From: a virus | Lineage: Duplodnaviria > Heunggongvirae > Uroviricota > Caudoviricetes | DNA length: 7,041 bases | Reading direction: 5' to 3' (one strand) | Virus record (IMG/VR): IMGVR_UViG_2690316109_000023 | Shown here: positions 2,838 to 7,041 of the stretch, one piece after another | Position numbering within the stretch: position 1 is the first letter of the stretch | Layout: each line of letters begins with the position of its first letter | Translations under genes and position numbers: made by a program | Notes under the pieces: model-generated | The model's database searches: none | What the model was told of the DNA's origin: nothing | The model's input: only the letters and a program-made list of their open reading frames with translations

Positions 2838-3112
2838 TGGAAGAAGTGAAACTCCATTGCCGCATCGATGGCGACGAGGAAGACCAGTTAATCAGCGGAT
2901 ACATTGCCGCATCGCTTGAGGCGTGCCAGATACACATAGGCAGGCGCTTTGATGACGGGCTGGAGTTCACGCCAGCCATAAAGATTGGCTGCATGATGTT
3001 TATCGCTCACCTGTATGAAAATCGCCAGATTGTCGCGGATAACGCAAAAACACGCGTACCCATGACGATTGGTGCACTCTGGACGGCTTACCGTGATGTG
3101 GGGGTGTACTGA
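2816..3112 (+). CDS. gp6-like head-tail connector protein
   Basis: N-terminus MTEELITLEEVKLHCRIDGDEEDQLISGYIAA resembles the gp6-like head-tail connector family. Stop TGA 3110-3112 overlaps the HNH ATG at 3112. Confidence 0.8.
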   Translation: MTEELITLEEVKLHCRIDGDEEDQLISGYIAASLEACQIHIGRRFDDGLEFTPAIKIGCMMFIAHLYENRQIVADNAKTRVPMTIGALWTAYRDVGVY

Positions 3113-3552
3113 TGCCGTGGCAACCATTAAGACGATGCACAGAACCAGGCTGTAACAGGCGCGTGAAGTCCGGCAAGTGTGAGGAGCACAGGCGGGCGGC
3201 ATGGCGTGCAGAGGATGCCAGACGAGGACACCGCCGCGCGCGTGGGTACTCCAGACAGTGGGAAAAATACCGCGCCATGTATCTGAGTAAAAACCCGTTA
3301 TGCGTGCGATGCCTTGAGAAGGGGATATATACGCCCGCCGTGGTGGTGGATCACATTATCCCGATTAATGGCGGTGATGATGTTCTCTTCTGGCCCGAAT
3401 GGAACCATCAGCCATTGTGCCAGGCGTGTCATAACCAGAAAACGAAGTGGCTTGATCCGGCAACAAAAAGCAAGCGTGCCGCTGGCGGATTCCGTGAGGA
3501 GGAAGAACGGGCCGCTAACCGCAATAACTGGATGTATGACGCTGATGAATGA
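3112..3552 (+). CDS. HNH endonuclease (terminase-associated)
   Basis: Cysteine pairs CTEPGC and CVRC, plus VVDHIIP and NHQPLCQACHNQKT, form an HNH/zinc-finger motif set. Located immediately upstream of terS/terL as in HNH-cos packaging systems. Confidence 0.88.
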   Translation: MPWQPLRRCTEPGCNRRVKSGKCEEHRRAAWRAEDARRGHRRARGYSRQWEKYRAMYLSKNPLCVRCLEKGIYTPAVVVDHIIPINGGDDVLFWPEWNHQPLCQACHNQKTKWLDPATKSKRAAGGFREEEERAANRNNWMYDADE

Positions 3553-3718
3553 GCGGGAACAAAACCGCCTTATCCGTGGACTTATAAGGCAGCGTGACGC
3601 ATGGAAGACACAGGAAACAGGGCATAAAGATAAAGCGTCAGGACGCGCAGAACGCATCACAGCGAAGCGATTAACCGACCGTGACCGCGAGGTTATGGAA
3701 TGTTTCCGCAATCGCTGA
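3545..3718 (+). CDS. Hypothetical small basic protein (57 aa)
   Basis: ORF MNEREQNRLIRGLIRQRDAWK... starts at an ATG overlapping the HNH stop (ATGAATGA), suggesting translational coupling. An in-frame ATG at 3536 is an alternative start. No recognisable domain. Confidence 0.35.
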   Translation: MNEREQNRLIRGLIRQRDAWKTQETGHKDKASGRAERITAKRLTDRDREVMECFRNR

Positions 3719-3842
3719 TGAGGCTGTATGACGGGGTGGGGGGGCGTTTTCAGGACAAACCCGACCCCGCCGGGCACCGAACGCCTCCTCAAATTTTTAT
3801 GCACGGGAATTTTTTGAAAAATAATCTGGCGAAAAAATAAGC
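3719..3842. other. Intergenic region between the HNH-side genes and terS; candidate cos/packaging site
   Basis: G-rich ACGGGGTGGGGGGG (3731-3744) and C-rich CCCGACCCCGCC (3760-3771) form an imperfect inverted repeat (CGGGGTGGGG vs reverse complement CGGGGTCGGG) around an 18-bp spacer, followed by AT-rich DNA. Its position matches where cos lies in HK97-type HNH-dependent systems. Confidence 0.25.
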
Positions 3843-4199
3843 ATGGCAAGACCACCGAAAGCCCCCGCCTACCTGGATGATATCGCCGTGAAGCAGTGGC
3901 GGGAAAAATCGCGGCAGCTTGCGGAACGGGGAGACCTTACCCCCGCCGACTGGAGTAATCTGGAACTGTATTGCGTCAATTACTCGATATACCGGAAAGC
4001 CGTCGCAGACCTTGCGGCACGCGGGTTCAGCATTGTTAACAGTCAGGGCGGCGAGAGCAGAAACCCCGCATTAAGCGCAAAATCCGACGCTGAAAGAGTG
4101 ATGATAAAAATGGCCTCCTTGCTCGGTTTTGACCCGGTAAGCCGCCGTAAAAATCCACCGGAAACAGAAGAAGAGGACGAGCTTGACCGCCTGGAATAA
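3843..4199 (+). CDS. Terminase small subunit (P27 family-like)
   Basis: 118-aa ORF starting MARPPKAPAYLD with an acidic C-terminal tail (ETEEEDELDRLE), immediately upstream of and overlapping the large terminase. Confidence 0.8.
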   Translation: MARPPKAPAYLDDIAVKQWREKSRQLAERGDLTPADWSNLELYCVNYSIYRKAVADLAARGFSIVNSQGGESRNPALSAKSDAERVMIKMASLLGFDPVSRRKNPPETEEEDELDRLE

Positions 4200-5844
4200 G
4201 TACGCAGAAGACGTAAAAACGGGCAAAATTCCGGCCTGTAAACGGTTAAAACAGGCTGTTAAACGGTACTTTTCGGACCTTAAAAGCCCCCTTTACACGT
4301 TCGATCGTGAGGTTGTGGAGCGGTTTATTGCCTTTTCCAGGGTGTGCCCGCACGTAAAAGGGCCGATGCGTGGCAGACCCATTGAGCTGGAGCCGTGGCA
4401 GCAGTTCGCCTTTGCGTGCATCCTCGGCTTTAAGGTTAAGGCCACCGGACGGCGCAAATACACGAGCGCCTTTATCGAAGTGCCGCGCAAAAATGCGAAA
4501 TCCACGACCGCCGCGATTCTGGCTGACTGGTTTCTGATTATGGAGAACGGTCAGCAGGATATTTACACCGCAGCGGTGAGCCGTGACCAGGCGCGGATCG
4601 TCTTTGATGATGCGCGTCAGATGTGCCTTTTATCCCGACCGTTACGCAGGCGGGTGAATATTCAGGCGCATAAGGTGATACACCCGAAAAGCAACAGCCT
4701 GTTAAAGCCGCTGGCAGCAAAAGCGGCAACCATCGAGGGAACAAACCCCAGCCTTTCCATCGTGGACGAATACCACTTGCACCCCGATAACGGCGTTTAT
4801 TCCGCGCTTGAGCTGGGGATGGGCGCACGTCCCGAAGGGCTGTTATTTGCCATTACCACATCAGGCAGCAACGTCGTTTCAGCCTGTAAGCAGCACTATG
4901 ATTATTGCTGCCAGATCCTGGACGGCGAAGAGGTTAACGATTCAATTTTTGTACTGATTTACGAACTGGACGACGAAAACGAGGTTGATGATCCGGCGAT
5001 GTGGATAAAGGCGAACCCTAATATTGATGTTTCCGTGGATCGTGAAAAACTGGCCTCAACCATCCAGAAAGCGCGGGGTATTCCGTCGCAGTGGGTGGAG
5101 ATGATGACAAAGCGATTTAATATCTGGTGTCAGGGGACTACCCCGTGGATGGGTAACGGCGCATGGGCTGAGTGTGCCGGAACGTTCACGGAGGAAGATT
5201 TACACGGCCAGGAGTGTTACGCGGGGCTGGATTTATCATCCACAAGCGATATTTCCAGCGTGTGCTATGCCTTTCCGGTCGGTAAAACCATTATGCTGGT
5301 TTCCCGTCATTATCTGCCGGAGTTCCAGCTACAGAACCCCGCCAATAAAAACCGCGCTGTCTATCGTCAGTGGGCTAAAGCAGGCTGGATACGCACAACG
5401 CCAGGTGACTGCATTGATTACGACCGGATCAGAGATGACATCATGCAGGACGCGGAGAAATTTAATATCAGGCTGGTGGGCTTTGATACGTGGAACGCCA
5501 CGCATCTCAGGACGCAATTACAGGGGGCTGGTTTTGAGGTGGAGCCGTTCCCGCAAACCTACCTCAGATTCAGTCCGGCGGCGAAATCGTTCGAAGTTTT
5601 TGTTAACCGCAGGGTGATTGTGCATCGTGGCGATCCGGTGTTGTCCTGGTCGATGAGTAACGTCGTGATGCAGAGTGACGCGAACGCCAATATCAAGCCG
5701 AACAAGAAAAAATCACCGAACAAGATAGACCCGAGCGTGGCGGCGCTGATGGCGTTTGGTACATTCCAGGCAGAGCATGAGGATTTTGCTTTTGATATAA
5801 GCGACAGCCACCGCCAGAAACTGGAAGAATTTAGCGGGGTGTAA
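4183..5844 (+). CDS. Terminase large subunit (HK97-type)
   Basis: 553-aa ORF of TerL size placed directly after terS. The first in-frame start is TTG at 4183, overlapping the terS 3' end by 17 nt; the next in-frame Met is ~60 codons downstream, so the TTG start is the likely one. Confidence 0.88.
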   Translation: MTAWNKYAEDVKTGKIPACKRLKQAVKRYFSDLKSPLYTFDREVVERFIAFSRVCPHVKGPMRGRPIELEPWQQFAFACILGFKVKATGRRKYTSAFIEVPRKNAKSTTAAILADWFLIMENGQQDIYTAAVSRDQARIVFDDARQMCLLSRPLRRRVNIQAHKVIHPKSNSLLKPLAAKAATIEGTNPSLSIVDEYHLHPDNGVYSALELGMGARPEGLLFAITTSGSNVVSACKQHYDYCCQILDGEEVNDSIFVLIYELDDENEVDDPAMWIKANPNIDVSVDREKLASTIQKARGIPSQWVEMMTKRFNIWCQGTTPWMGNGAWAECAGTFTEEDLHGQECYAGLDLSSTSDISSVCYAFPVGKTIMLVSRHYLPEFQLQNPANKNRAVYRQWAKAGWIRTTPGDCIDYDRIRDDIMQDAEKFNIRLVGFDTWNATHLRTQLQGAGFEVEPFPQTYLRFSPAAKSFEVFVNRRVIVHRGDPVLSWSMSNVVMQSDANANIKPNKKKSPNKIDPSVAALMAFGTFQAEHEDFAFDISDSHRQKLEEFSGV

Positions 5845-5857
5845 TGAGGTCAGCAGC

Positions 5858-6139
5858 ATGACAGAAGCCGAAATAACGGGATTAATCCGCCGCGTTGCCG
5901 GAATCAGCCAGCAGGCTGACGAACAGGCCACGCAGCCGGACAGCGTGACAGCCGAAAACTATGCGCGTGTTGTTGCTGAGGTGATGCGCCGTGATGGTAT
6001 AGAACTTAATGGCGTGGATATGCGCAACATACGAACCAGAGTTCTTGAGTTGCTGGCCTACCGTCGCCGCGTGGAGATGTATCGGGAGAAGGAGAAAATA
6101 ACGTACCACTGGAAGAAGCCGGAGCGGTTGCGGCGGTAA
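5858..6139 (+). CDS. Hypothetical protein (93 aa), last gene of the module
   Basis: ATG 5858 with GAGG 8 nt upstream, 13 nt after the terL stop. Charged, arginine-rich C-terminus. No recognisable domain. Confidence 0.5.
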   Translation: MTEAEITGLIRRVAGISQQADEQATQPDSVTAENYARVVAEVMRRDGIELNGVDMRNIRTRVLELLAYRRRVEMYREKEKITYHWKKPERLRR

Positions 6140-6289
6140 CTGGTTGATATTCCCGACGGACCAAAAATGGGTGGCTACATCCCTCGCTTCTGAGGACTGT
6201 TAACAAGCTGCCTGAAAGACAGTCACAAACTACGAAATTTTCGCAGTTTAATTAATGATCAGCTTAATCGCTAACCCGCAGATATTTTC

Positions 6290-6700
6290 GGAAACCTCAA
6301 TTTGAGGAAGTCGGCGCGGTAACTCGCTGAACTTTAAGCAAAGCGCAAAATTGCGCTTGCTGAATAATCATTATGATTACGCAGATGATTAAGGAATGAC
6401 CGAAGGCGGAAATTCGCCTGTGGTTAATGGGGGAGTTGCAGATCTGCAACTCGACCATGAAACTACGGAAACTACCCGTAGTTTGGGTAGTAAGAGTAAC
6501 ACCCAGATTTTGGGTCTTACTCGTGATACCCAAATTTGGGGTATCAGTGGCAACCATAACGACTTTCGTTACGGTTGATGCTTTTACCCCATTGGGGGAA
6601 AGGTATTACGATAATCATAACACCTACCGAACAGGTAAAGCCCACCAGCCTGATTAACGTTTAACCGGAAAAAAATTCCGGTAGGTGGGGATCCCCATAT
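6290..6700. other. Hairpin/palindrome-dense non-coding region
   Basis: At least ten dyad elements in ~400 bp: 6295-6307, 6341-6358, 6405-6418, 6433-6452 (perfect 20-mer), 6463-6491, 6494-6522, 6525-6545, 6551-6577, 6587-6597, 6664-6682, 6686-6697 (perfect 12-mer). ORFs in this region are rich in rare codons and lack RBSs. Confidence 0.6.
6433..6452. promoter_or_regulatory. Perfect 20-bp palindrome GAGTTGCAGATCTGCAACTC; candidate dimeric-protein binding site
   Basis: Exact reverse-complement symmetry over 20 bp, verified base by base. Confidence 0.4.
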
Positions 6701-6808
6701 CGACATTAACGCCCCTCATGAATTGGTGCGCTTCCCCCTGGAAAGATGATCCGCCTGTATATTTCTTGTGTCTATTTGTTCCACGTTGTTTCATACAGTG
6801 CACCGAAC

Positions 6809-6832
6809 GGTGTAGTCACTGGTGTAGTCATT
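6809..6832 (+). repeat. Tandem 12-bp direct repeat GGTGTAGTCACT / GGTGTAGTCATT; candidate recombinase arm-type or regulator binding sites
   Basis: 11/12 identical adjacent repeats about 75-95 bp inside the putative element end. Confidence 0.4.
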
Positions 6833-6876
6833 TTGCGATTTTTGGCACTTTTTGTGGTGCAAATTATTTAATTAAA

Positions 6877-7041
6877 TCAATTAGTTAGGTTAAATAAGTT
6901 ATATATAACAGCAATAAATAATGCGAGAATAAACGGCACGATGATCTCGGCGGCAAAACGGATACCGCAGAGAATAATGACCAGCATTCCCAACATAATG
7001 ACGATTTTTAGGCCATTGAGCGTGATGATCGGCTTTGCCAT
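6877..7041 (-). pseudogene. tqsA: 5' fragment of an AI-2E family transporter gene (tqsA/ydgG-like): about 45 native codons, then 9 foreign codons and a stop
   Basis: Minus-strand ATG at 7039-7041 translates to [45 protein letters not shown], then IYNLFNLTN and stop (TGA complement at 6877-6879). The hydrophobic N-terminus matches my recollection of E. coli TqsA. Sequence becomes AT-rich and non-coding exactly where the match ends (~6906). Confidence 0.55.

Follow-up and report, generated by a model that had tools for sequence, protein, structure and literature searches.

A probable cos site in the gap between the HNH endonuclease and small terminase genes of a capsid-forming PICI of the EcCIEDL933 type

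Genes of the window and the element that carries them

The window, by which we mean the whole stretch of 7,041 nt that was analysed (IMG/VR virus record IMGVR_UViG_2690316109_000023), contains a train of genes on the + strand, which starts with the end of the gene for the major capsid protein and continues with an S78 prohead protease, a portal protein, two head-closure genes, a gp6-like connector, an HNH endonuclease, a 59-aa ORF, a small terminase (TerS) of the P27 family and a large terminase (TerL) of the HK97 type. A preliminary description of this DNA had singled out the gap ahead of terS as the only sizeable non-coding interval of the train, and the interval 3719-3842 was confirmed to be the largest one; the HNH gene lies upstream of it and terS and terL downstream, as had been described, with the 59-aa ORF intervening between the HNH gene and the gap. 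The features at and around the gap are the following:

3112..3552, + strand: HNH endonuclease gene (packaging accessory nuclease); Pfam HNH PF01844, E=1.8e-8; PHROG 144 HNH, E=8.6e-45
3539..3718, + strand: 59-aa ORF between the HNH gene and the putative cos region, function unknown; phrog_3173, E=7e-37
3719..3842, no strand assigned: whole intergenic, putative cos region; 124 nt
3843..4199, + strand: small terminase TerS, P27 family; Pfam Terminase_4 PF05119, E=4e-24
4183..5844, + strand: large terminase TerL, HK97 type; Pfam TerL_ATPase and TerL_nuclease

The HNH protein shares 38% identity with HK97 gp74 (E=1e-18), and TerL shares 27% identity with HK97 gp2 over 506 aa (E=4e-47). TerS is 35.6% identical to the TerS of SfV (E=2e-13, tblastn), while a similarity to HK97 gp1 was undetectable and no homologue was found among solved structures, so that the HK97 TerS-DNA structure is not transferable and any analogy between the TerS sites is positional only. 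The 59-aa ORF, for which a Pfam search gave no match, overlaps the stop codon of the HNH gene and ends at the edge of the gap; it is present in some relatives from Enterobacterales and is absent or unalignable in most other lineages. On the other side of the packaging genes lies a conserved 93-aa ORF (5858-6139, phrog_1561, function unknown).

Over its bases 3100-4300 the window shares 98.3% identity with an island in the chromosome of E. coli O157:H7 EDL933; this island has been described as the prototype EcCIEDL933 of the capsid-forming PICIs (cf-PICIs) (10.1101/2022.09.08.507074). In proteobacterial cf-PICIs the capsid, protease, portal and connector genes are followed by hnh, terS and terL (10.1101/2022.09.08.507074), and the Pfam assignments place the genes of the window in this order without any tail genes. 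The EDL933 island carries int at one end, followed by regulatory and replication genes, and tail genes are absent from it as well; int, the AlpA-type regulator and the replication module of such an element, which spans about 15 kb between its att sites, lie outside the 7-kb window and were observed only in this 98%-identical island. Judged by its sequence, the window represents a cf-PICI of the EcCIEDL933 type. The region 3100-4300 is carried by 515 of 5426 complete E. coli genomes and is found in many other genera too. The island of the window is flanked on its right by tqsA, and the EDL933 copy lies between roxA and phoQ.

A non-coding stretch of 737 nt (6140-6876) with several short repeats and palindromes separates the last ORF of the island from the host gene tqsA (autoinducer-2 transporter, 6877-7041, - strand), whose reading frame seems to diverge after about 47 codons, which suggests an att site inside or at the start of tqsA. 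Neither a tRNA gene nor an Rfam family was found in 6140-6876 and the tqsA junction region, and the same junction between island and tqsA occurs in 188 E. coli genomes. Within the morphogenesis genes, a tandem direct repeat of 291 nt (2240-2530 and 2539-2829; period 299, local alignment score 273 of 291) gives rise to two head-closure (Phage_HCP) genes at 2182-2520 and 2517-2819, of which the second opens with the N-terminus of the connector gene (MTEELIT); EcCIEDL933 has one copy, and the tandem may reflect either a true duplication or an artefact of the assembly. Immediately past the stop codon of the capsid gene, at 367-390, a GC-rich hairpin (GGGGCTTAAAAGCCCC) is followed by TTT and looks like an intrinsic terminator or attenuator within the morphogenesis operon; in HK97 and SfV a terminator or attenuator is likewise annotated past the capsid genes.

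Conserved blocks and the inverted repeat of the gap

For the analysis of conservation, relatives were gathered by TerS similarity only, using one genome per species from GTDB together with IMG/VR and GenBank phage records. Their sequences ahead of terS were aligned, and for each 10-nt interval conservation was expressed as the weighted frequency of the most common base over 77 distinct loci. The same layout was shared by 73 sequences, which come from Enterobacterales, Aeromonas, Orbales (Gilliamella, Frischella) and Pasteurellaceae. Among the 77 loci the non-coding blocks 3733-3742 and 3773-3822 reach values of 0.79-0.97, compared to about 0.65-0.93 for the coding sequence of terS. The gap can be divided into the following parts, for which the conservation is given at the end of each line:

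3733..3745, + strand: conserved G-run (GGGGTGGGGGGGC / GGGGTGGGGG), putative upstream cos element, with the left arm of the inverted repeat; 0.89 over 3733-3742
3746..3760, + strand: semi-conserved block (GTTTTCAGGACAAAC / TTTTCAGGACAAA); 0.64-0.70, the GAC/AAA positions being nearly invariant
3761..3772, + strand: spacer of variable sequence and fixed length; the lowest value, 0.50 (3763-3772), entropy 1.67 bits
3773..3790, + strand: C-rich tract (GGCACCGAACGCCTCCTC; family consensus GGCACCGCCCGCCCCCTC), predicted nicking region (cosN-like); 0.79-0.85
3778..3787, + strand: predicted 10-nt cohesive end (CGAACGCCTC), placed by alignment to the SfI and HK97 ends
3791..3825, + strand: AT-rich block (AAATTTTTATGCACGGGAATTTTTTGAAAAATAAT), predicted TerS-binding/bending region (cosB-like); 0.84-0.97, the highest of the region
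3826..3842, + strand: leader and ribosome-binding region of terS; poorly conserved, 0.57-0.60

In the alignment of the gaps the columns of the G-run are nearly invariant, and most of the invariant columns lie in the AT-rich block (consensus AAATTTTTACGCACGGNNATTTTTTTGAAAATAAA), which is conserved at least as strongly as terS. In 71 of the 73 sequences, 32 nt separate the end of the G-run from the first base of the 10-mer in the C-rich tract, despite the variable sequence of the spacer. The 10-mer itself has the family consensus CGCCCGCCCC and occurs in 23 variants among the 73 sequences, all of which are pyrimidine-rich; such drift is expected of a cohesive end, as the two ends of the molecule are derived from one site. 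Fixed spacing, a variable spacer and conserved blocks taken together fit an assembly site for proteins on DNA, and not a coding sequence or a hairpin. The gap of the window is identical to that of EcCIEDL933 save for one extra G in the G-run (G7 in the window, G6 in EDL933), which shifts the start of the G-run by 1 nt relative to the C-rich tract.

Two relatives deviate from the common layout. In Shigella flexneri SFBU1023 (CP182556.1, about 1479-1510) a deletion of 98 nt between two CCCCGCC direct repeats, equivalent to 3772-3869 of the window, has removed the C-rich tract and the AT-rich block together with the ribosome-binding region and the initial 9 codons of terS, so that this strain should represent a natural variant without cos and without TerS. 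In Xenorhabdus hominickii the G-run upstream of terS has grown to five tandem GGGGTA units (GGGGTAGGGGTAGGGGTAGGGGTAGGGG) with normal blocks downstream of it, and this array is a potential G-quadruplex former.

The preliminary description had drawn attention to an inverted repeat of a G-run and a C-run followed by AT-rich DNA. The repeat exists, with CGGGGTGGGG at 3732-3741 and CCCGACCCCG at 3760-3769 being complementary at 9 of 10 positions and separated by 18 nt, and the change in composition exists as well, the GC content being 69% in 3727-3790 and 27% in 3791-3842. The weight that had been placed on the repeat was not borne out, since it was not found to exceed chance and only its G-run arm is a conserved element. 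A repeat of equal quality (10-nt arms, at least 9 matches, loop of 3-30 nt) arises in 11.6% of dinucleotide shuffles of the gap, and the whole window contains 17 such repeats with 5.7 +/- 4.5 expected. When the gap was folded as single-stranded DNA, its stability was not above that of shuffled sequences (z = -0.68). Among 72 distinct relatives 61.6% of the cells pair in the register that had been described, compared to 57.5% when the arms are slid by +1 and 65.4% when they are slid by +2; as pairing is no better than in the slid registers, a G-run opposite a pyrimidine-rich spacer accounts for it rather than a conserved helix. The left arm falls into the strongly conserved block 3733-3742 and the right arm into the variable spacer, the least conserved part of the gap. 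A reading of the repeat as a hairpin, terminator or cruciform was thus rejected by shuffles, folding, a terminator scan and the pair counts in slid registers. An alternative repeat formed by the G-run and the C-rich tract (3737-3748 / 3780-3791) was also discarded, as it shows no covariation. Searches for known RNA families and tRNA genes found none, and in the gap neither an Rfam family nor a terminator nor a promoter on the + strand was matched; the GC stem with a T-run and the conserved or covarying structure of the terminator class are not seen in it.

Likeness to mapped cos junctions and ends of particle DNA in relatives

A comparison of the gap with cos sites of related phages had been suggested at the outset, and it revealed a resemblance to the sites of SfI/SfV and of HK97, with the C-rich tract of the window lying at their 10-nt ends. 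For SfI, a close relative of SfV, run-off sequencing of DNA from virions revealed that 10 nt of the prophage sequence, TGCCCGCCCC, are missing as a gap (PMC3636060). The cf-PICI consensus CGCCCGCCCC differs from this measured cohesive end by one base, and the 10-mer of the window matches it at 6 of 10 positions. The junction of SfV reads GGGGAGGGGCGGGTCAAATCTCTGTGACCTGACGTCT | TCCGGACTGCCCGCCCCATCGTTTTTTTATACCCGCG...ATG and, like the window, contains a G-run, 44 nt to a C-rich 10-mer, a T-tract and then terS; counted from the start of the G-run, this distance is 44 nt in SfV, as in the Klebsiella cf-PICI, while HK97 has 46 nt. The GenBank record of HK97 begins and ends at the cohesive ends, which gives the junction GGGCAGGGGGGGGGATCAAATCTTCAAAACCTTTGCCCCAAATGACCGCCGCCAAA | GTTTGAATTTAACGCTAACCCGATTTTTTTAG...ATG, and for this phage an overhang of 10 nt and a TerS site with an A-tract at +15 to +29, on the terS side of the cut, have been reported (10.1101/2023.07.17.549218). 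The terminal 10 nt of the record (CGCCGCCAAA) align with the 10-mer 3778-3787 of the window, HK97 and the cf-PICIs alike have 27 nt from the A of ACCGCC to the end of ACGC, and the T-tract starts 23 nt past the predicted top-strand cut in the window and 23 nt past the cut in HK97 too. Moreover, in HK97 and SfV the G-run is followed by TCAAATCT...GAC, which can be compared to the semi-conserved block 3746-3760.

The strength of these similarities was estimated with shuffles. In block shuffles the alignment of the SfV junction with the window gave z=3.1, with 3 of 1000 shuffles scoring as high, and SfV against three other cf-PICIs gave z=1.7-2.1. With shuffles preserving local composition, SfV against HK97 reached z=6.5. 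HK97 gave z=4.1 against a Xenorhabdus cf-PICI, non-significant values against the Klebsiella element (z=0.4 and z=-0.6), and z=1.5 against the gap of the window, which is not significant with local composition preserved, and for this last pair we therefore claim only similarity at the level of the profile and of the architecture and not pairwise homology. A profile built from the 73 gaps was searched with nhmmer against both strands of the circularised genomes of HK97 and SfV. In each genome the best match was the cos junction, namely in HK97 with 10.8 bits (E=0.025, model positions 3-82) and in SfV with 8.1 bits (E=0.18). Each match is weak singly; the chance that the top match in a genome of about 38 kb falls on a given interval of 100 nt in the right orientation is about 1 in 750, and this occurred twice.

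Ends of packaged DNA can be approached through a record of a relative. The sequence of vB_KppS-Ant (LR881103) is >99% identical to a part of the K. pneumoniae DSM 30104 genome, which identifies it as the cf-PICI KpCIDSM30104. It was obtained from a DNase-treated lysate by a Nextera XT library and de novo assembly with SPAdes. Its linear contig of 16.5 kb starts 22 nt before terS and ends just past the G-run at ...GGGGTGGGGGAGGTTTTCAGGAC, so that the G-run is kept inside the right end. In the chromosome of ATCC 13883 (= DSM 30104) 69 nt lie between the two contig ends, and these missing nucleotides include the C-rich tract, its 10-mer CACCCGCCCC being flanked by 21 nt and 38 nt of the missing sequence. 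In window coordinates, the interval between these ends, in which the cut should lie, is 3757-3825. A linear molecule is expected to be shortened by a few tens of bases at either end during tagmentation, while a circular or concatemeric template would instead give an arbitrary break with overlapping ends. In principle, the contig breaks could also come from poor coverage of G/C homopolymers. The contig runs from terS and terL via int and the replication genes to the capsid genes and HNH, which supports, for this relative, the earlier proposals that the packaged DNA begins with terS-terL and ends with the capsid genes and HNH and that the att/int region comes to lie in the middle of it; as the contig is continuous across att/int, the termini are not there.

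A second lysate-derived record, that of the Klebsiella phage P12620-1 (PQ569648.1), has a cf-PICI part that breaks on both sides of the gap, starting at codon 2 of terS and ending 5 nt before the stop codon of the small ORF. The three IMG/VR matches to the blocks near the end of a locus all contain the whole site and give no information on ends, and in the Pasteurella records Pmp7 and Pmp8 the gap is internal, so that they are uninformative on termini. Both Klebsiella records are unusual in their annotation. The 106.5-kb 'complete genome' of P12620-1 is a chimera in which about 90.6 kb of another phage are joined at 90645 to 15.9 kb of cf-PICI. The source paper of vB_KppS-Ant calls the record a filamentous ssDNA prophage, its gene content being that of a cf-PICI, and a 2.3-kb ORF after terL, which has no counterpart in the window, is annotated as a tape measure protein.

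The layout of vB_KppS-Ant bears directly on the reading that the element is packaged by a headful (pac) mechanism, or from a cos site elsewhere such as 6140-6876 near the att end, and that the gap is conserved for another reason. This reading draws on the large repeat-bearing non-coding stretch past the ORF on the terL side, but it is very improbable given that the gap between HNH and terS is the only break in a contig that is otherwise continuous from terL via int to the capsid genes, that packaged KpCIDSM30104 DNA was reported in a preprint to form concatemers through cohesive ends, and that a TerL of the HK97 family with an adjacent HNH gene belongs to a clade classed as 3' cos (PMC5000459).

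The contig ends in the gap, and the alignment of its blocks with the mapped cos junctions of HK97 and SfV and not with promoters, also argue against a mainly transcriptional role, in which the gap would be a terminator after the HNH-side genes or a promoter or operator of terS-terL and the blocks would be sites for regulatory proteins. Conserved non-coding DNA can be regulatory, and the gap does lie between genes and immediately upstream of terS and contains TTGAAA-like hexamers; the promoter-like match that was found is, however, weak and on the minus strand only (3849-3821), and the results of the terminator and promoter scans, of folding and of the slid registers given above speak against this role as well. 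In addition, the morphogenesis and packaging genes of cf-PICIs are described as one packaging operon (10.1101/2022.09.08.507074), and a gap that serves mainly transcription appears highly unlikely to us.

That the gap is coding, either for an N-terminal extension giving the TerS of 165 aa found in many database entries or for an ATG-initiated 46-aa ORF that spans it (3700-3840), is hardly conceivable, since in the window the terS frame meets an in-frame TAA at 3822-3824 ahead of the gene, differences of one base in the length of the G-run (window and EDL933) and of the C-rich tract (relatives) would shift the frame, the conservation is block-like and not codon-like, and RefSeq annotates the form of 118 aa. 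In an E. coli lineage with about 90% identical TerS most gene callers give 165 aa, with 47 extra codons upstream through the putative cos; these calls look like a systematic over-call, as RefSeq and the conserved N-terminus favour 118 aa.

The probable cos site and its place among known packaging systems

We conclude with a probability of roughly 0.85 that the gap 3719-3842 is the cos site of this EcCIEDL933-type cf-PICI. This conclusion was reached from three independent lines of indirect evidence, namely because its non-coding blocks are very strongly conserved at fixed spacing across about 70 species, because both its sequence and its architecture are like those of the cos sites mapped in SfI/SfV and HK97, and because the particle-DNA assembly of a Klebsiella cf-PICI has both ends inside the gap with the predicted layout. 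The same three lines support what the preliminary description had proposed, namely a cos site in the gap between HNH and terS of an HK97-type module. As is characteristic of an HK97-type packaging site, the gap lies between hnh and terS-terL, the TerL and HNH proteins are homologous to gp2 and gp74, and the gap is similar to mapped cos junctions, with scores that are individually weak; with a TerS of PF05119 and a TerL of the HK97 type it is not of the lambda type.

A mechanism may be proposed as follows. After induction and replication, the P27-family TerS of the island would bind the AT-rich block 3791-3825 just upstream of its own gene, which is the candidate TerS site by analogy with the positions +15 to +29 of HK97. 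The HK97-type TerL, aided by the adjacent HNH protein, would then nick the C-rich tract in a staggered fashion, with predicted nicks flanking 3778-3787 and thus generating a 10-nt cohesive end, which is predicted at this position from its alignment to the ends of SfI and HK97 and is probably 3'-protruding, as in the class of HK97. Packaging would proceed rightward through terS, terL, att/int, the replication genes, the capsid genes and HNH until the next cos is reached, and the DNA would enter the small capsids made by the island. The G-run 3733-3745, at a fixed distance of 32 nt upstream, may be a further cos element that acts in termination or in docking of TerL or HNH. The exact positions of the nicks, the polarity of the overhang, the assignment of proteins to sites and the direction of packaging are those that we infer from these comparisons.

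The G-run is common to cf-PICIs of four bacterial orders and has an equivalent in SfV and HK97 at a similar distance from the cohesive ends. It is a tentative suggestion, which we consider doubtful at present, that it constitutes a distinct uncharacterised cos subsite, with a cosQ-like role in termination or as a docking site of HNH or TerL, and that the satellite-specific AT-rich block confers on cf-PICIs their exclusive packaging in the presence of HK97-type terminases of helpers. Of all features of the gap, this G-run at a fixed distance, shared with HK97 and SfV, is the only one that might repay study.

Neither the cf-PICIs nor their packaging of the cos type nor the order hnh-cos-terS is new; in the literature on cf-PICIs packaging is stated to be of the cos type with cohesive ends, and the papers that were read give neither the position nor the sequence of the site. 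The cos site decides which DNA is packaged by the terminase of the satellite and thereby underlies the reported finding that cf-PICIs are packaged exclusively into small capsids of their own. A cos position with its subsites and a likely cohesive end make direct tests possible, the gap can serve as a compact DNA signature for the detection of cf-PICIs, and a cos site here would explain why assemblies of lysate-derived records break at the same point. The current picture of HK97-type packaging is unchanged by these results.

Among known systems, EcCIEDL933 and KpCIDSM30104 belong to the same element family as the window, the tandem duplication of the head-closure gene being confined to the copy in the window when compared to EcCIEDL933.

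The cos site of lambda is tripartite (cosQ-cosN-cosB), and in it the nick site is preceded by an upstream element and followed by an AT-rich region for TerS binding beside the gene for the small terminase. The predicted subsites of the gap follow this tripartite logic, and the gap also has an AT-rich region beside the small terminase gene, while lambda has 5' overhangs of 12 nt, terminases of the Nu1/A families and no HNH.

HK97 is closer, as it shares the order hnh (gp74)-cos-terS-terL and a homologous TerL and HNH protein with the window, and it differs in its unrelated TerS and in the distance between gp74 and the end, which is about 360 nt compared to about 60 nt in the window. SfV and SfI are complete temperate myoviruses of 37-38 kb in which the portal, protease and capsid genes follow terL, whereas the element of the window is a tail-less satellite of probably 15 kb with its capsid genes before hnh and an AT-rich block of different sequence; at the packaging site itself, however, they are like the window in the order hnh-cos-terS-terL, in the P27-family TerS and the HK97-type TerL, and in the HNH gene that lies at the right end of SfV.
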